Part shown: in pieces, positions 26,145 through 35,906 of the stretch | Numbering within the stretch: the first letter of the stretch is position 1 | How the letters are laid out: the number at the start of each line of letters is the position of its first letter | Assembly (NCBI GenBank): GCA_040220235.1 | Contig: JAVJTO010000115.1 | Origin: Coleofasciculus sp. B1-GNL1-01 | Lineage (GTDB): Bacteria > Cyanobacteriota > Cyanobacteriia > Cyanobacteriales > Coleofasciculaceae | DNA length: 45,757 nucleotides | Direction: 5' to 3' (one strand) | Program-made: the position numbers and the translations under genes | The notes under the pieces: generated by a model | What the model saw: the letters and a program-made list of their open reading frames with translations, nothing else | Told to the model about the DNA's origin: nothing | The model's database searches: none

Positions 26145-26796
26145 GAAACTTCTAATTTAATTGAAAAACCTACATTTAATCAACGACCTACCACACACAA
26201 TATGCCAGGTAAACCGGGTAAATATAGGCTTGAATTACACAAGTTTGATTGTAACCTTTTATGACCTTAGTTGTTCAAATAAATCTGAAATTAGTGGATC
26301 AGATGTTTGTCAGCCAATGACTACGCTATCGCTTCGCGGCTCATCCCATTAGCACCAAAATAGCGTTTATGCCAGATGTTGCTTTTGATCCCCATAGCGA
26401 TAACTTATAGTATCAGTCAATGTAAAACATAGTTGACACAATACTATAAATATGTATTCAGTAGTCAATCAGACGTAGCTCTAACACTATAACTAGATGT
26501 GTTGGTTTAGGCAACCTCAACCCAACCTACCATAAGAAAAGGGCGATCGCGTTCATCTTCATCCGGTGAAGCCGATCTAGCTTCTCACTATGAAAAAACT
26601 GATAGCACCCTTTTTCTAGCCATTTCAGTCAAATCGTTTTCGGTATCAATGATTACCTCAACGCACCATCATTCTGGGGACTGCCAAGGATTAGCCCACC
26701 TTGTATGAAGCTGGAAACATAGATGCTTGAGTCAGAGGAACTACAGCAACTTAACTTATAAGGTATAATTTTTGACAATTAAAACCATTCCCTCTA

Positions 26797-27551
26797 ATGC
26801 TAAAGTTCTACTATAATCCAATTTCTGCTAATGCTCGCCGAGTCTGGGTGACATTGCTAGAAAAACAAATTCTATTTGAGCCAATTTTGGTGAATTTAGA
26901 TGGAGATCACCTAAGTGATGATTTCACCGCCATTAACCCGCTTCAGCGAATTCCTGTCGTCATCGATAACGGATTTCGGATCGTTGAGTCGTTAGCAATT
27001 TTGGACTATAGCAATCCTATTTAGGTCGTGGCAATTTTCAAAAATGAAACCCTTGCTATACCTGGGTTTCGAGCATTTCGCTTGTTGCATCCTATTTAGG
27101 ATTGCTATATTTAGAGGCGAAGTATCCAACGCCATCATTGATGCCTAATGAAATTGACGCGATCGCAACGGTTCGCATGGTAGAAATGATAGCAGTTAAT
27201 GAACTTCAGCCGCTGATGATTCCGTTAACGAAACAATTAGTTGGACTAGAAGTCAATCCTGATCAAATTGACAAGGCTCGGCAACGCATAACGACGATCA
27301 TCAAATTTTATGAAAATCTTTTAGCGGGACAGACTTACTTTGTAAACAATCAAATTACCCTAGCGGATATTGTAGCTGGAACATTGGTTCCCTCCTTACC
27401 TCAATTCGGTTTATCTCTAGACAATTACCCATCCATAAAAACATGGTCACAGCAGCTTGAGCAGCGAGAAACTTGGCAACAGACATCTGTGAAACCGGAA
27501 ATGATTGAAGCCGCTATCCCAAATATGCGAGCCATTTTAGAGAAGCGATAA
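26797..27551 (+). pseudogene. Glutathione S-transferase interrupted by a MITE
   Basis: The N-terminal half (NPLQRIP..D.GF.IVESLAILDY) and C-terminal half (LEAKYPTP...ITLADI) rejoin in frame once 27009-27109 is removed. Confidence 0.9.
27009..27107. mobile_element. 99-bp MITE with TA target duplication (IS630/Tc1-mariner-like behaviour)
   Basis: TA|TAGCAATCCTATTTAGG...CCTATTTAGGATTGCTA|TA: 11-bp perfect TIR (15/17 extended); internal hairpin GAAACCC..GGGTTTC. Confidence 0.88.
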
Positions 27552-28535: not shown

Positions 28536-28654
28536 TAACTATCCCAAAAACAGTTTATATGCCGGATTCTGGTTTTCATCCCAATAGCGATAACCCAGAG
28601 TATCCAAAAACCCTTGCAATTCCTCCATCTAATGGGGTGGAACCTGCATTCCCA
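28536..28654 (-). pseudogene. Duplicated 3' end of ilvA (119 bp)
   Basis: 8 mismatches in 119 bp versus 29559-29677 by manual alignment; translates GMQVPPH*MEELQGFLDTLGYRYWDENQNPAYKLFLG. Confidence 0.9.
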
Positions 28655-28670
28655 GGAAAGTTTTTAGGGC

Positions 28671-29162
28671 TTATAATTCTCCTACTATTGCCAAAATTTG
28701 GTTATACAGAACTGGAGACACTTTAAACTGGTATGTAGCAATGAGTTCATCCATTAAAGGTTGAACCGCAGGAATAAACGATCGCTGTTTGGCTTCCACC
28801 AATACACCCAGTAAGCCAGTAATCCGGATACCTAGACGGTTCGCTGCTGTTCTACCACGACGCTCATCAATGAGTAACAAGTCAGCATTGATTTCCAGGG
28901 CTAAAGCAATCGCTTCAGATTCGCCTGGATCGAGTTGCACTGTAATTTGCAATTGCTCAACCATTGCGCGATCGCGAACAGATCGAACCTCAATCCATTG
29001 AAGAGTCTGTATTTCAACCGTTCCAGGAACAGGCGGATCGACCATTAATTCTTGGTAGACGGCTAGTGGAATGAAAATACAATCATAAAGCTGTTTAAGC
29101 AAGTGAAGATGTCCGATCGCCGCCAGGTTTGTTAAGACGGAAGTATCACTAATGACTATCAC
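28671..29162 (-). CDS. DUF3368 PIN-like toxin (copy 1)
   Basis: MIVISDTS..NL, LDPGESEAIALA, LLIDERRGR, GLLGVL; overlaps its antitoxin by 4 nt. Confidence 0.88.
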   Translation of the reverse strand: MIVISDTSVLTNLAAIGHLHLLKQLYDCIFIPLAVYQELMVDPPVPGTVEIQTLQWIEVRSVRDRAMVEQLQITVQLDPGESEAIALALEINADLLLIDERRGRTAANRLGIRITGLLGVLVEAKQRSFIPAVQPLMDELIATYQFKVSPVLYNQILAIVGEL

Positions 29163-29407
29163 AGCCGCCCCAATTCCCGCAGGTTTTTTAGATCTATCTC
29201 AAAGTCTTCAACATCGTAGTTATAGAGGGGTATTTGGCGCTGTTTTAGCAATTCCCGGAAGGCACCATCTGACATCTGGGCTAAGTGACTGGCGTGACCA
29301 ATCGTTAGCCGACCCGCTTGAAATAGCAATAGTGCTATTTCTTGTTTAAATTCGGCAGCTTCCATTTGACAGGCGCGAAGGGTTTCGTCAGAGATAATCA
29401 CACTCAT
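29159..29407 (-). CDS. UPF0175 family antitoxin (copy 1)
   Basis: KQEIALLLFQ..RLTIGHASHLA, YDVEDFE.DL. Confidence 0.88.
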   Translation of the reverse strand: MSVIISDETLRACQMEAAEFKQEIALLLFQAGRLTIGHASHLAQMSDGAFRELLKQRQIPLYNYDVEDFEIDLKNLRELGRL

Positions 29408-29561
29408 AGATAGTTGAAATATAGAAACCACTGCTCTTTTAGTATAACTTCTTCTTTATGGTGTCATCGGCTTTAATATTCACCCCTCTTAACCCCTTAG
29501 TAGAATCGCCTATCCCGATAGGTTGGGTTGACGCGCCGAAACCCAACATCTCTAGTCATAA

Positions 29562-31073
29562 CTATCCCAAAAACAGTTTATACGCCGGATTCTGGTTTTC
29601 ATCCCAATAGCGATAACCCAAAGTATCCAGAAACCCTTGCCATTCCTCCATCTCGTGCGGCGGAACCTGCATTCCCACGACAATGCGCCCATAATCTGCC
29701 CCATTATTCCGGTAGTGAAATAAGCTAATATTCCAATTAGGACTCATGGAACCAACAAACTTCATTAAAGCACCCGGACGTTCAGGAAACTCAAAGCGAT
29801 AAAGTAATTCATTATCCGCTAAGGAAGAATGTCCGCCTACCATGTGCCGTAGGTGCATTTTTGTCAGTTCATCATCGGTTAAATCTAAGGTTTTGAATCC
29901 ACACCCTTCAAACGCTTCTATCATCTTGGCGGCGTCACTGCGGTTGGCAATTTGAACACCGACAAAAATATGTGCCTCGTTTTCAGCAGAAATGCGATAA
30001 TTAAACTCAGTTAGATTCCGTTTACCCAAGCATTCACAAAACTGACGCAAACTCCCCGGTTTTTCGGGAATTGTCACAGCAAAAATAGCTTCGCGACGTT
30101 CACCAAACTCTGCCCGTTCTGCCACAAAGCGGAGACGGTCAAAGTTCATATTAGCACCGCAGGCAACGGCAACTAAGGTTTGTCCCTGAATTTGCTCGCG
30201 TTCAACATAAGTTTTAGCGGCTGCGATCGCTAATGCCCCAGCGGGTTCTAAAATAGAACGTGTATCCTCGAAAACATCTTTAATCGCGGCACAGGTGGCA
30301 TCAGTATCCACCAGAATAATCTCATCCACATATTGTTGACACAGGCGAAAGGTTTCTTCCCCCACTTCTCGCACTGCCACCCCATCAGCAAATAAGCCCA
30401 CCTGGGGTAATCGCACCCGTTTCCCAGCTTTTAGGGATTGATACATAGCATCCGCATCCACGGGTTCAACGCCAATTATCTTAATGTGGGGATACAACCG
30501 TTTTACATACGCGGCAATCCCAGAGATTAATCCACCGCCACCAATTGCCACAAAAATAGCATGGATAGGTTGCTGATATTGGCGGAGAATTTCCATGCCA
30601 ATCGTACCTTGTCCGGCAATCACATCCGGATCATCAAAGGGATGAATAAAGGTTAACCCTTTTTCGGCTTCCAGTTTCCGGGCAAAGGCGTAGGCTTCAT
30701 CGTAGGTTTCTCCCTGCAAAACCACCTCTCCGCCACGGGCTTTAACCGCATTTACCTTAACTTGGGGCGTGGTTACGGGCATAACGATAATCGCTTGGGT
30801 GCCTAGCTGACGCGCAGCTAGGGCGACGCCTTGGGCATGGTTTCCGGCAGATGCGGCAATTACGCCCTGTGCCAGCATATCGGGGGGGAGTTGTGCCATT
30901 TTGTTATACGCCCCGCGCAGTTTGAAGGAAAAGACGGATTGCATATCCTCCCGTTTGAGTAGGAGTTGGTTATTCAAGCGGGCGGATAGGTTGGGGGCGT
31001 ATTCTAGCGGGGTTTCTTGGGCAACATCGTAGACGCGGGCGGTGAGGATTTGTACTAGGTAGTCACAAAGCAT
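29562..31073 (-). CDS. ilvA: Threonine ammonia-lyase, biosynthetic
   Basis: KREDMQSVFSFKLRGA, SAGNHAQG, GGGGL, two C-terminal ACT-like domains (PEKPGS, FPERPGAL). Confidence 0.97.
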   Translation of the reverse strand: MLCDYLVQILTARVYDVAQETPLEYAPNLSARLNNQLLLKREDMQSVFSFKLRGAYNKMAQLPPDMLAQGVIAASAGNHAQGVALAARQLGTQAIIVMPVTTPQVKVNAVKARGGEVVLQGETYDEAYAFARKLEAEKGLTFIHPFDDPDVIAGQGTIGMEILRQYQQPIHAIFVAIGGGGLISGIAAYVKRLYPHIKIIGVEPVDADAMYQSLKAGKRVRLPQVGLFADGVAVREVGEETFRLCQQYVDEIILVDTDATCAAIKDVFEDTRSILEPAGALAIAAAKTYVEREQIQGQTLVAVACGANMNFDRLRFVAERAEFGERREAIFAVTIPEKPGSLRQFCECLGKRNLTEFNYRISAENEAHIFVGVQIANRSDAAKMIEAFEGCGFKTLDLTDDELTKMHLRHMVGGHSSLADNELLYRFEFPERPGALMKFVGSMSPNWNISLFHYRNNGADYGRIVVGMQVPPHEMEEWQGFLDTLGYRYWDENQNPAYKLFLG

Positions 31074-31434
31074 GGGTAAACCGGGTGGCAGATGCAGGAT
31101 GTAACGAAAATTTTACTTTATTGGCGTCGCTAGTTGTGGGGGGGAGGGTGCGATTATGCTTGATGATAGGTCAACGAGTTACGACGAGAGCAAAATTTAG
31201 AAGTCAACTAGCCCAAACTACAACGCTAAGGTTCATTGTGGGGCAGTTTGACTTAAGCCCCATGGCAGTAAAATAAGCATTTTTGGAGCACCGAAACCTT
31301 TGATATACCGTAGGATGGACAATGCCAACCAGCCTTAATTCAGTACCATTCGACTTAAGTCGTTGTTAGATCACGTTAGCTATAATAATGCATGTAATTT
31401 CTTCTTTAGTAGAACATCTCAAGTAAGCAAAGCC

Positions 31435-31653
31435 ATGAAATGTAGTTTCATCTCTCTGTATCAAGAAACAATATCTCAGAAAAAGGTAAGTTCTAAACCT
31501 ACAGATATATTGCTTGGTACTCAAACTAGAACAGATTCTCGTGAGGGAGTTGACCAAGATCCCTGGAATCGGAACACTCAGACTTTTACAACAGTACGAG
31601 GTAATTCTGATTCTGATGACTCACCTATACAATTCGTCATAATTCCGCAATAA
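31435..31653 (+). CDS. Graspetide (omega-ester RiPP) precursor, 72 aa, two core repeats
   Basis: Cores TQTRTDSREGVDQD and TQTFTTVRGNSDSD (TxTxTxxx(E/G)xxDxD); ends 9 nt before an ATP-grasp gene. Confidence 0.78.
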   Translation: MKCSFISLYQETISQKKVSSKPTDILLGTQTRTDSREGVDQDPWNRNTQTFTTVRGNSDSDDSPIQFVIIPQ

Positions 31654-31662
31654 AAAAGTTAG

Positions 31663-32634
31663 ATGATAATAGTTCTCTCGAATTCCTTAGATGTAACATC
31701 AGATTATGTTTGTTCTAGATTAGAACACGAAGGATTGGATTACATCAGATTAAATACTGATCACTTGATTGAAAAAACGGAGTTACTCTATAAATTTAAT
31801 TACCTTTTACTTTCTATAGACAATCAAACGTTGACACCAGATAAGGTTAATTCAGTATGGTACAGGAGACCACAACCCCTGAGATTACCAGAAGGTAAAA
31901 AGTTTGAGAAAGGCGAACAAGCACATGCCCTTAGTGAGTGGAGTGCAGCAATTGAAGGTTTTTTATCTCATATTCCTACTCATTATTGGATTAATCATCC
32001 AAGGAACAATGCTTCAGCATCATCCAAGCTAGAACAACTGAGTCGTGCCAAAAAGTTCGAGCTTACGATTCCACGAACCTTAGTTACTCAATCTTTTGAA
32101 GAAGTTATCCAGTTTTGGACAGAATGCAATGGGAAAATAGTAATTAAGCCAATTTCCCATGGATATATTGAAAGAGATAATCCTCAAGAAGATACAGTAA
32201 TTTTTACGAATGAATTTACGCTGGATAAACTAAAAGAAAATCGTGATATTTTGTGTCTATGTCCCACTCTATTTCAGGAGAAGGTAAAAAAAATATGCGA
32301 TGTTAGAGTCAATGTTATAGACAAAGAAGTAATTGCTACTGCAATTTACGCCTCTGAACGAGATAAATTGCAAACTATTGATATCCGCAGAAACAATATG
32401 CAATACGTGAGATATGAATCCATAAAATTACCCTATTCATTAAAAATAAATCTCTTAGATATTTGCCGTTCTTATCAACTAAGATTTGCAGCTATTGATA
32501 TGGCAATTAATACAGATTATGAATGGTTATTTTTTGAAATAAATCCAAATGGTCAGTGGGCTTGGCTGGACTTGGAAGGCGTAACAGATATTGGGAGTAT
32601 ATTGTTAAACTCAATGCAAAGCCCTTCTCTATAA
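31663..32634 (+). CDS. MvdC/MvdD-type ATP-grasp peptide maturase
   Basis: VWYRRP, SSKLEQL, IPRTLVT, IKP, LFQE, DVRV, FAAIDM, FFEINPNGQWAWL. Confidence 0.9.
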   Translation: MIIVLSNSLDVTSDYVCSRLEHEGLDYIRLNTDHLIEKTELLYKFNYLLLSIDNQTLTPDKVNSVWYRRPQPLRLPEGKKFEKGEQAHALSEWSAAIEGFLSHIPTHYWINHPRNNASASSKLEQLSRAKKFELTIPRTLVTQSFEEVIQFWTECNGKIVIKPISHGYIERDNPQEDTVIFTNEFTLDKLKENRDILCLCPTLFQEKVKKICDVRVNVIDKEVIATAIYASERDKLQTIDIRRNNMQYVRYESIKLPYSLKINLLDICRSYQLRFAAIDMAINTDYEWLFFEINPNGQWAWLDLEGVTDIGSILLNSMQSPSL

Positions 32635-32641
32635 TTTAGAT

Positions 32642-33340
32642 ATGAATTTCTCTGCTTACATTACATGGATATTGATGCGCTGCGCTATAGTCGAATGTAC
32701 TTTATCAGAAGTTCAGCATAGACAATATGAGCCTGAGATAAAGGTTGATACGATTCCTGAAAAATTGCAAGTCACTGACGATAAAATTAATTTTCTCAAA
32801 AATAAAAATGATGAAATAAAAGATCGTAGAGATAGGGTAGATACCAAAGCGCGTACTTTGTTGACCTTAACTTCTATATTACTTGGTTTAATTTCTAGCG
32901 TCACTAGCATTGCATCGGCAAAATATGTCGGCATTTGGGCAATTATTCCTCTTATTTTGCTATTTGTCACTATATTTTTACTTACTGTATATTTGGGAGT
33001 TGATAGGAGTCAAACAGTTGATTATAGCTATATTTTTGCGGAATCAGAATCAGCTAATAGGATGCTATGTAATGATAGGCTTATGTCGCAAAATTACAAT
33101 GGGCGTGTGACGGATTTCATGCTTGATCTATATCGAGCTGCTTTACGATATTTTTCTCTGGCGATACTATGTATTATGATTCTGGGAATTTGGAACATTT
33201 TATCTAATGATAGTAACTGGTTCACCAAAGAGGTTAGAGACTATAAAACACAATCTGCCTTAAAAGACAATACCCTTACTTGCCAAAAATTTATGAATGA
33301 AAGTAAAACTAATAAGGCGACGGTTTCAAAGCCGGATTAA
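32642..33340 (+). CDS. 3-TM membrane protein, possibly Pycsar-effector (DUF5706)/SLATT-like
   Basis: Charged helix ending RVDTKA, two adjacent TM helices, a soluble loop and a third TM; 7 nt after the ATP-grasp stop. Confidence 0.55.
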   Translation: MNFSAYITWILMRCAIVECTLSEVQHRQYEPEIKVDTIPEKLQVTDDKINFLKNKNDEIKDRRDRVDTKARTLLTLTSILLGLISSVTSIASAKYVGIWAIIPLILLFVTIFLLTVYLGVDRSQTVDYSYIFAESESANRMLCNDRLMSQNYNGRVTDFMLDLYRAALRYFSLAILCIMILGIWNILSNDSNWFTKEVRDYKTQSALKDNTLTCQKFMNESKTNKATVSKPD

Positions 33341-33418
33341 GTATCCTCTGTTCATATAATAACAAATTATCCCTCTTTAGCTATCTCAGACGTAACCAAA
33401 TCTATCAGAATAGATCTC

Positions 33419-33910
33419 TCAGAATTCTCCCACTATTGCCAAAATTTGGTTATACAGAGCTGGAGAAACTCTAAACTGGTATGTAGCAATGAGTTCATCC
33501 ATTAAAGGTTGAACTGCAGGAATCAACGATCGCTGTTTGGCTTCCACTAATATCCCTAGTAAGCCAGTAATTCTGATACCTAGACGGTTCGCTGCTGTTC
33601 TACCACGACGCTCATCAATGAGTAACAAGTCAGCATTGATTTCCAGTGCTAAAGCGATCGCTTCAGATTCACCTGGATCGAGTTGCACTGTATTTTGCAA
33701 TTGCTCAACCATTGCGCGATCGCGAACCGATCGAACCTCAATCCATGGAAGAGTCTGTACTTCCACTGTTCCAGGAACAGGCGGCTCGACCGTTAATTCT
33801 TGGTAAACTGCTGTTGGAATGAAAATGCAATCATAAAGCTGTTGAAGCAAGTGAAGATGTCCGATCGCCGCCAGGTTTGTAAAGACGGAAGTATCACTAA
33901 TAACTATCAC
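33419..33910 (-). CDS. DUF3368 PIN-like toxin (copy 2)
   Basis: Same length as, and closely similar to, 28671-29162. Confidence 0.88.
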   Translation of the reverse strand: MIVISDTSVFTNLAAIGHLHLLQQLYDCIFIPTAVYQELTVEPPVPGTVEVQTLPWIEVRSVRDRAMVEQLQNTVQLDPGESEAIALALEINADLLLIDERRGRTAANRLGIRITGLLGILVEAKQRSLIPAVQPLMDELIATYQFRVSPALYNQILAIVGEF

Positions 33911-34155
33911 AGCCGACCCAATTCCCGGAGGTTTTTGAGATCTAGCTCGAAGTCTTCAACATTGTAGTGATAGAGTGGTATTTGACGCTGTTTGAGCAAT
34001 TCCCGGAAGGCACCATCTGACATCTGGGCTAAGTGACTGGCGTGACCAATCGTTAGCCGACCTGCTTGAAATAGCAGTAGTGCAATTTCTTGTTTAAATT
34101 CGGCAGCTTCCATTTGACAGGCGCGAAGGGTTTCGTCAGAGATGATAACACTCAT
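33907..34155 (-). CDS. UPF0175 family antitoxin (copy 2)
   Basis: Differs from copy 1 at 3 of 82 residues. Confidence 0.88.
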   Translation of the reverse strand: MSVIISDETLRACQMEAAEFKQEIALLLFQAGRLTIGHASHLAQMSDGAFRELLKQRQIPLYHYNVEDFELDLKNLRELGRL

Positions 34156-34347
34156 AGTTTAAATATAGAAACCACTACTCTTTTAGGATAACTGCTCCAC
34201 TCCAGCCAGAAAAGAGAGTGATGCTCCAGCAAAGGCAACTATTAATTGAGTGTTTAATAGTTGGTTCATAATTATTTTTCCCAATTCAACAGGTATAAAA
34301 GGGTGATTAGTGGGGTGAGCATTGAACTCATTTTATGATCGGTGATC

Positions 34348-35463
34348 TCAGACATTACTCAAAACCAGGTTATCTCGATGCACAACTGTTTCCGCCCCAC
34401 CATAGCCCAAAATTTCGGGAATGTCGGCTGATTTATGTCCCCGAATTTTCTGTAATTCCAGACTGCTGTAGTTGACCAATCCTCTAGCCATTTCTACGCC
34501 ATGACTATCACAGAGTTGTACCGCATCCGAGGCGTTAAAATTCCCCTCAATTGCGGTAATTCCGGCGGCTAATAGAGACTTACCCCCTTGACAAATTGCC
34601 CTGACTGCACCCTGATCTAAATACAACTTACCCGCCGGAACTAAACTGTGAGCAATCCAACGCTTACGGGCGTTTTCGGTTCGTGGTTGGGGGGCAAATT
34701 GCGTTCCTAATGGTTCTCCCTGTAAGATTTTTTCGATCGCTTCGGGGTGTCGCCCTTGGGTAATCACGGTTCTCACTCCCGCACTTGTGGCAATTCTGGC
34801 GGCGGTAATTTTGGTTACCATTCCTCCTGTTCCCCACTGAGAACCTGCTTTCCCAGTTTGTATCTGAAGTTCGGCTAACTCTTCCATGCTGTTCACCAGG
34901 GTAATCGGTTCAGCATCAGGGACTTGACGCGGATCAGCCGAATAGAGTCGATCAACATCGGTTAATAAGAATAACCAATCGGCTTCGATTAAACTCGCCA
35001 CCATAGCCGAGAGGGTATCGTTATCGCCAAATTTGAGTTCCTCGACAGCGACGGTATCATTTTCATTCACTACGGGAATGACACCAAGCTGCAATAGTTC
35101 TCGAAATGTCGCGTAAGCATTAACATAGCAACTGCGCTGTACCAAGTCTTGGCGGCTTAACAAAATTTGCGCGATCGCTTGCTGAAGACTGGAAAATAAA
35201 TCATCATAGACTCGCATTAACCGTCCCTGACCCACAGCCGCGACAGCTTGCTTGAGTGCGAGGGTTTGAGGACGAGTCTTTAATCCCAATCGTCCACACC
35301 CAACTCCCACTGCACCAGAGGTGACTAAGACTACACCATACCCAGAGGAACGCAACCTAGTCAGCGTTTCCACTAGCATCGCAATCGTTGACAGCGCTAG
35401 CTGACCCGTTTCTGGATGAGTCAGACTGGATGTACCCACTTTGACAACAATTGTTTCGGTCAT
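34348..35463 (-). CDS. proB: Glutamate 5-kinase
   Basis: [39 protein letters not shown]-terminal PUA domain. Confidence 0.97.
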
Positions 35464-35740
35464 TTGTCATTTGTCATTTGTCATTTGTCATTTGTCATTC
35501 GTCATTCGTCATTCGTCATTCGTCATTTGTTGAAGATGACTTGCACTCTAATCGGGGCGGGTTTAGTGATATCAAGGTGACAACCCAACGTTAGTGGTAA
35601 AACCCGCCCCTACAATTCCCCAGCTCCCCCAGCTCCCCCAGCTCCCCCAGCTCCCCCAGCTCCCCCAGCTCCCCCAGCTCCCCCAGCTCCCCCAGCTCCC
35701 CCAGCTCCCTCTGCTTCCCCAGCTCCCTCTGCTTCCCCTC
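35460..35740. repeat. Repeat patch: (TCATTTG/TCATTCG)n, GTAG-REP, (CCCCAGCTC)n
   Basis: Read directly; same order of modules as 21099-21370 on the opposite strand. Confidence 0.88.
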
Positions 35741-35906
35741 TCAACACAATAGAGCGCTACGTCCTCAACTAAGGGATATAGCGCTCGCTATGGAATTATA
35801 ACAGGTGTTTTTATTATGGTTAGGGTCTTTATAATGGCTGACCCCATTTGAACTATTATCAGAATCTCATGATTTTCTGACTGCCTGCTTTTTCATAATC
35901 TTTTCT

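Follow-up and report, generated by a model that had tools for sequence, protein, structure and literature searches.

Graspetides have been studied as secreted protease inhibitors, and the characterised members of the class do inhibit proteases (PMC8939145). An uncharacterised membrane protein specific to the thuringinin branch was described in 2022 and proposed to transport the peptide, its cluster 18 being present where known transporters are absent (Makarova et al., 2022; PMC8939145). The gene trio considered here is already on record there as part of the thuringinin branch, its membrane gene being interpreted as a transporter, and the terms "defense", "SLATT" and "DUF5706" do not occur in the main text of that article (PMC8939145). 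The other described systems of interest are Pycsar-TM and Pucsar-TM, among which EcPucTM is reported to form a hexamer with a 15 Å channel and to give abortive infection (bioRxiv 10.64898/2026.08.12.744502). No link of the trio to PycTM or to defence was found in the literature searched, and subscription papers and bioRxiv supplements (defence-screen tables) could hold one.

The cassette occupies positions 31435-33340 of the window, i.e., the whole stretch of 45,757 nucleotides that was analysed, and consists of three ORFs on the same strand (72, 323 and 232 aa) with intergenic gaps of 9 and 7 nt, as tightly packed as they had appeared to an initial reading of the letters alone, here called the sequence-only reading. 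Similarly to what that reading had stated, no genes for a protease, an ABC or other exporter or an acetyltransferase were found within the cassette. No second copy of the cassette was found in this genome. All three genes are under purifying selection when compared with four orthologues (dN 0.16-0.37, dS 0.7-2.7 or saturated).

The composition of the cassette differs from that of the genome. Its GC content is 0.344 versus the genome mean of 0.455, and only 0.2% of 4,458 same-sized genome windows are as GC-poor, in agreement with the AT-richness noticed earlier. Also the lack of HIP1 sites noticed earlier is real (zero in the cassette, 38 in the whole window), but taken alone it is weak evidence, because 25% of 1.9-kb genome windows have no HIP1 site either. 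Stronger evidence comes from six cyanobacterial relatives, in which one HIP1 site was counted in 11.7 kb of cassette versus 96 in 84.7 kb of flank, and in all of which the GC content of the cassette is 5-12 points under that of the flanks. In this genome the trio occupies a variable slot between ilvA and proB (31121..34193), the similarity to congeners stopping at ~31120 and returning at ~34194-34355. The slot of four congeners, in which both flanks lie on a single contig, is filled by DUF5674 and PIN-type genes or by a TIR-repeat gene, and for 20 relatives there was no match to the trio among the matches listed, unlisted ones being weaker than 1e-45. The horizontal acquisition that had been proposed is supported, as a recent event, by the low GC, by the HIP1 and GC contrast in the relatives and by the variable slot. 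The proposed hotspot of toxin-antitoxin and Uma2 genes stands in part only: a UPF0175 and DUF3368 toxin-antitoxin-like pair (33419..34155, minus strand; PADLOC candidate PDC-S70) lies in the same slot, outside the conserved trio, but the Uma2 gene is not part of the insertion, because it is situated on the other side of ilvA and congeners lacking the trio have it too.

The UPF0175 and DUF3368 pair is found twice in the window (28675-29452 and 33423-34196, 93% identity), the copies flanking ilvA and the trio. Beyond the left pair, the terminal 122 nt of ilvA are duplicated at 93% (28536-28657 versus 29559-29680), and a weaker third copy is seen at 26350-26414. These duplications look like the scar of insertions at the 3' end of ilvA.

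The first gene of the trio (31435..31653, plus strand) encodes a graspetide precursor of 72 aa with a short leader, two cores and a C-terminal hydrophobic-Pro tail. Residues 4-11 (31444..31467, plus strand) fit the cluster-13 leader consensus, F5 and E11 being conserved in the alignment, and are likely to form the ligase-binding helix. There is no double-glycine site in the leader. Based on sequence and conservation, core 1 comprises T29, T31, T33, E37, D40 and D42 (31519..31560, plus strand) and core 2 comprises T48, T50, T52, G56, D59 and D61 (31576..31617, plus strand). The spacing T-x-T-x-T-x-x-x-E-x-x-D-x-D is exact in core 1, and core 2 follows it without the Glu: position 56 is Gly (codon GGT) here and Glu in at least 90% of 39 aligned precursors, in which T31, T33, E37, D40, D42, T50, T52, D59 and D61 are conserved to the same extent. 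Three nested omega-esters, i.e., a three-ester hairpin, are predicted for core 1, because OEP6-1 has three nested cross-links (PMC12291112). Core 2 is predicted to form at most two such esters, since G56 removes one acid donor. The spacing of cores and leader fits the cluster-13 rows labelled group 6 in Fig. S2 of PMC8939145. A different, single-core precursor accompanies the same TM partner family in the trios L026:6726-7007 and L108:1479-1724, where it ends in a Trp/Pro-Gly-Asp-Asp-Asp-Pro-Asp-type core and a terminal Cys-Tyr.

The second gene (31663..32634, plus strand) encodes a putative ATP-grasp peptide macrocyclase of 323 aa and of the thuringinin-branch type, as suggested by profile and structure-family matches and by conserved residues. 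It matches PF21068 (MvdD pre-ATP-grasp domain) above the cut-off and the solved graspetide ligases at E 2e-29 with ~30% identity, so that the earlier assignment to MvdC/D-type ATP-grasp ligases is sound at the level of the fold. K122, K162, Q205, D279, E292 and N294 are invariant in 75 homologues. In a related strain (metatranscriptome runs X1-X3) the cassette has a 197-nt deletion at window positions 31657-31855, and the start of the ligase is gone.

Judged by sequence features, the locus belongs to the thuringinin branch of graspetides, and its cores are of the group-6 type. It shares with the other loci of the branch (cluster 13, Lee groups 3/5/6, cluster 18) the single ligase, the multi-core Thr/Asp precursor, the leader motif and a membrane gene in place of known transporters, and the ligase profile recovers the group-3 ligase of E. 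coli at E 3e-64; the ligase tree was built without an outgroup from other graspetide branches. What sets this sub-branch apart from the other thuringinin-branch loci is the short leader together with the C-terminal hydrophobic-Pro tail (37 of 44 precursors). With microviridin (MvdC/MvdD) the likeness is limited to the ligase fold: there is one ligase here, with no PFFARFL leader, acetyltransferase or ABC transporter. A microviridin cluster was rejected on the absence of that leader and on the equivalog scores, which lie far below the cut-offs (168 of 425 and 159 of 475 bits for the MvdC and MvdD models; the SAV_5884 model was likewise below its cut-off).

The product of the third gene (32642..33340, plus strand) is a 3-TM protein of 232 aa (TM ~72-92, 97-119 and 165-187) with conserved R62, K69 and D162. 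As judged by hydropathy and by an AlphaFold model (pLDDT 90.5), a long helix continues into TM1, TM1 and TM2 form a hairpin, and a cytosolic stretch precedes TM3. DTKA is found at residues 67-70, directly ahead of TM1, in accordance with the sequence-only reading. That reading had also recognised the layout of Pycsar/DUF5706-type effectors, of which the PycTM-like layout and a distant homology hold, but the window's protein has no match to Pfam PF18967 and there is no cyclase. The protein matches PADLOC PycTM at E 6.5e-7; among 141 family members PycTM is the commonest PADLOC match (13 members, the next family having one), and PF18967 is on record in 15 of 44 close homologues as weaker matches. 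HHalign against an alignment of nine PF18967 proteins gave 91% over 47 columns, a local match whose centre is the helix ahead of TM1 together with TM1 itself. When the family alignment was broadened, the probability was 93.5, the match covered 148 columns and the score was 48, versus at most 20 for 30 block-shuffled controls. Over the HHalign runs the probability was 90-96 (148 columns in local and 177-183 in global mode), above the shuffled and reversed controls. In the ESM Atlas the protein matched, at TM 0.70, a cluster of which 11% is PF18967; PDB searches gave no chain of PycTM or PucTM. Taken together, the profile comparisons point to a distant homology with the pJV1-SpdB3/PycTM family.

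The protein was not counted as a member of Pycsar, because there is no cyclase: none was found in or beside the cassette, and no cyclase domain in the 288 neighbouring genes scanned (see below). Membership among the Pycsar/Pucsar TM proteins was rejected on this ground and on the lack of a PF18967 match above the curated cut-off. The likeness comprises the pre-TM1 helix with D-x-K, the 2+1 TM layout, the profile-level homology, the small operon and the defence contexts. Unlike in Pycsar-TM and Pucsar-TM, the partners in the cassette are a peptide and a ligase, and the 3-TM family has an extra conserved N-terminal segment, stays below the Pfam cut-off and in half of its members carries a collagen-like tail. 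PycTM is not known to have such a tail. PycTM-family proteins may occur without a cyclase, since no cyclase-like gene was seen within 1.5 kb of the PF18967 proteins L116-L118. It should also be kept in mind that homology to this family does not imply defence, because the name of the family comes from a protein that spreads plasmids.

The ligase and 3-TM genes are found together in distantly related bacteria. When 12 loci in GTDB genomes were collected by the 3-TM protein, the ligase gene was directly upstream in 11 and the precursor was seen in nine; two contigs are cut, and L012 is a lone fragment. When the search started from the ligase, the best 80 of 510 metagenome loci, six of them too short to inform, had the 3-TM gene directly downstream in all 74 informative cases; the proteins all score at least 27 bits, six of the 74 having been in the scoring profile already. 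Among 11 viral loci the 3-TM gene is present in five, one is too short, and five have another gene, which in four of the five is a PCMT methyltransferase. Trios reside on plasmids of Pseudomonas, Croceicoccus and Sinorhizobium and on Leptospira phage LE1, and they recur across phyla. The coupling of the ligase and 3-TM genes is nearly obligate, and both the recurrence survey called for by the sequence-only reading and the co-occurrence on which that reading depended thus came out in its favour. Trees built for 65 loci from the ligase and from the TM protein are congruent (Mantel r 0.89, with 16 supported splits in common and 3 of 27 TM splits conflicting), as those of any co-inherited operon would be. 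In the database protein P0047 the N-terminal part of the ligase is fused to the C-terminal part of the TM protein, likely owing to a deletion or an assembly chimera.

Two loci listed by Makarova et al., those of the Leptospira LE1-type (group 5) and of E. coli E2348/69 (group 3), have a TM gene that matches the family weakly. In E2348/69 the gene order is ligase-TM-precursor, and the TM protein reaches 17 bits across 144 positions of the profile, a weak score that one background frame equalled. That unrelated frame, which drew level with both the E. coli and the Leptospira partners, was the only one of 7,392 genome frames at ~17 bits (over 59 positions), the remainder being below 9. Makarova cluster 18 is consequently probably, although not certainly, this TM family. 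The top background score on the TM profile was given by a small membrane ORF near the locus on contig C35 of G000; at ~41000-48500 of that contig, genes for a large ATPase and for HTH-nuclease-like and cysteine-desulfurase-like proteins resemble, by eye, a Dnd/Ssp-type system.

The genomic neighbourhoods were scanned over at most three genes per side of 73 loci (288 genes, proteins up to 600 aa), 17 loci being left out as duplicates, broken, short or of another branch. Defence genes make up 28 of the 288 neighbours versus 2 of 137 control genes (odds ratio 7.3, Fisher p 0.001), where the controls come from 20 random regions of this one cyanobacterial genome and are not taxon-matched, and the defence list was compiled after the hits were known and tallied by hand. 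Counted per locus (14 of 73 versus 2 of 20) the difference is not significant (p 0.51), and the enrichment that would fit the proximity to defence islands considered in the sequence-only reading is significant by gene and not by locus. The neighbours include type I RM, Thoeris, TIR+caspase, CBASS-type E2/E1, Pycsar TIR, Mrr, GmrSD and Schlafen. The single cases are telling. One trio is carried as cargo by a P2-like prophage, between its repressor and its tail genes, the E2348/69 copy shares a tRNA-Asn element with Septu-like, NsnA/PD-T4-2-like and DUF4238 genes, and another E. coli copy, 69% identical, is immediately next to Sir2-HerA in an ssrA element. Several cyanobacterial copies lie among housekeeping genes (L003, L006 and L010). 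Because the trio is mobile, spread across many bacteria and often beside defence genes, it is likely to be a phage-defence module and not a secreted-inhibitor factory. Against this it has to be said that, besides defence genes, mobile DNA also transports unrelated cargo.

We give an even chance to the cassette being an abortive-infection system, in which an intracellular cyclised peptide controls a PycTM-like membrane effector. By analogy with the family, the ligase would bind the leader and form Thr-Asp/Glu esters in both cores. The cyclised product would then stay in the cytoplasm, as there is no peptidase, exporter or double-glycine site. The 3-TM protein may form a ring with a central channel, as the PucTM hexamer does, and the peptide might bind the cytosolic helices of the ring, replacing the cyclic nucleotide of Pycsar. 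Two modes of control can be envisaged. In the guard mode the constitutively made peptide would hold the pore shut until infection removes it, either by host shut-off or by capture or cleavage by a phage protease, whereupon the membrane would depolarise and the infected cell would stop; in the other mode the peptide would be an activator made upon infection. The guard mode is slightly favoured, because the ligase has no sensor domain. A weak hint in the same direction comes from a small and unsystematic sample of five broken genome or plasmid copies, in all of which the TM gene is broken (L008 and L163 have only this gene broken, L011 and L013 the ligase as well, and in L012 it is a lone fragment); the metagenome contig L036 presents the opposite case, a split ligase and an intact TM gene. 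In Panoptes a decoy signal restrains a membrane effector. The likeness to the logic of the guard mode is one of analogy only, since Panoptes uses cyclic nucleotides and unrelated proteins.

Should the membrane partner prove to be an effector of the Pycsar type, this branch would act in immunity and use a peptide as its signal. We tentatively extend this, at somewhat less than even chance, to the whole graspetide branch, thuringinin included: an ester-stapled ribosomal peptide would take the place of the cyclic nucleotide, binding a Pycsar-family pore as its ligand, and would guard against phage shut-off or phage proteases. A peptide messenger would be a class of bacterial immune signal not described in the literature searched, and the PycTM scaffold would be able to read a ligand other than a nucleotide. 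The question is directly testable, as the three genes take up ~2 kb and are native to 92 of 5,426 complete E. coli genomes at ≥99% identity.

That the membrane protein instead exports the graspetide as an extracellular protease inhibitor, which is how Makarova et al. read cluster 18, appears unlikely to us. Its presence where known transporters are absent and the activity of the characterised graspetides (PMC8939145) are in keeping with export, and so are the channel of a relative, ~15 Å in width (bioRxiv 10.64898/2026.08.12.744502), and the collagen-like Gly-X-Y tails that end 73 of the 141 TM partners, are predicted on the far side of TM3 and could span the periplasm. Nevertheless, neither an ATPase, an outer-membrane channel, a leader peptidase or peptide exporter nor C39 peptidase, ABC_membrane or HlyD domains were found in the 288 neighbours, and Gly-Gly or Gly-Ala occurs within the first 35 residues of just 5 of 44 precursors. 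The 3-TM protein matched no exporter family or fold, in line with the sequence-only reading, which had set an effector against an exporter or immunity fold. Export would also leave the defence neighbours and the prophage cargo slots unexplained.

The same evidence from context would equally suit a peptide that is itself antiviral, inhibiting or baiting a phage protease or an assembly step, with the membrane protein as an anchor or scaffold for ligase or peptide. The class is known for inhibiting proteases, and a membrane scaffold role in microviridin is indicated by the title of reference 17 in PMC8939145. We consider this reading rather improbable, as it does not explain the PycTM homology or the conserved R62/K69/D162 face, and other graspetide branches do without this partner, four of the five other viral loci having the PCMT methyltransferase in its place. 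About as improbable is a selfish, toxin-antitoxin-like addiction module without a phage role, the TM protein being the toxin and the cyclised peptide the antidote that stabilise mobile elements: the copies on plasmids, prophages and integrative elements and adjoining IS elements, and the TM gene broken in all five degraded copies, would fit it, but that sample is small and unsystematic and L036 runs against it, and the idea overlaps the guard mode of the abortive-infection system, because many toxin-antitoxin-like modules also defend against phage.

A few minor features of the window may be added. A dispersed genome-wide repeat at 31251-31361, just upstream of the precursor gene, stands out in three metatranscriptome runs by its very high summed contig depth and could correspond to a small RNA or to a mobile repeat. 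Upstream of proB there is a 9-nt tandem repeat with 13 in-register copies, as well as a 7-nt repeat (35591-35756 and 35445-35535, respectively). The glutathione S-transferase gene at 26797-27551 is broken by a dispersed inverted-repeat element (~27007-27110), near-identical copies of which are present on many contigs, and the gene is intact in the congeners (217-228 aa).
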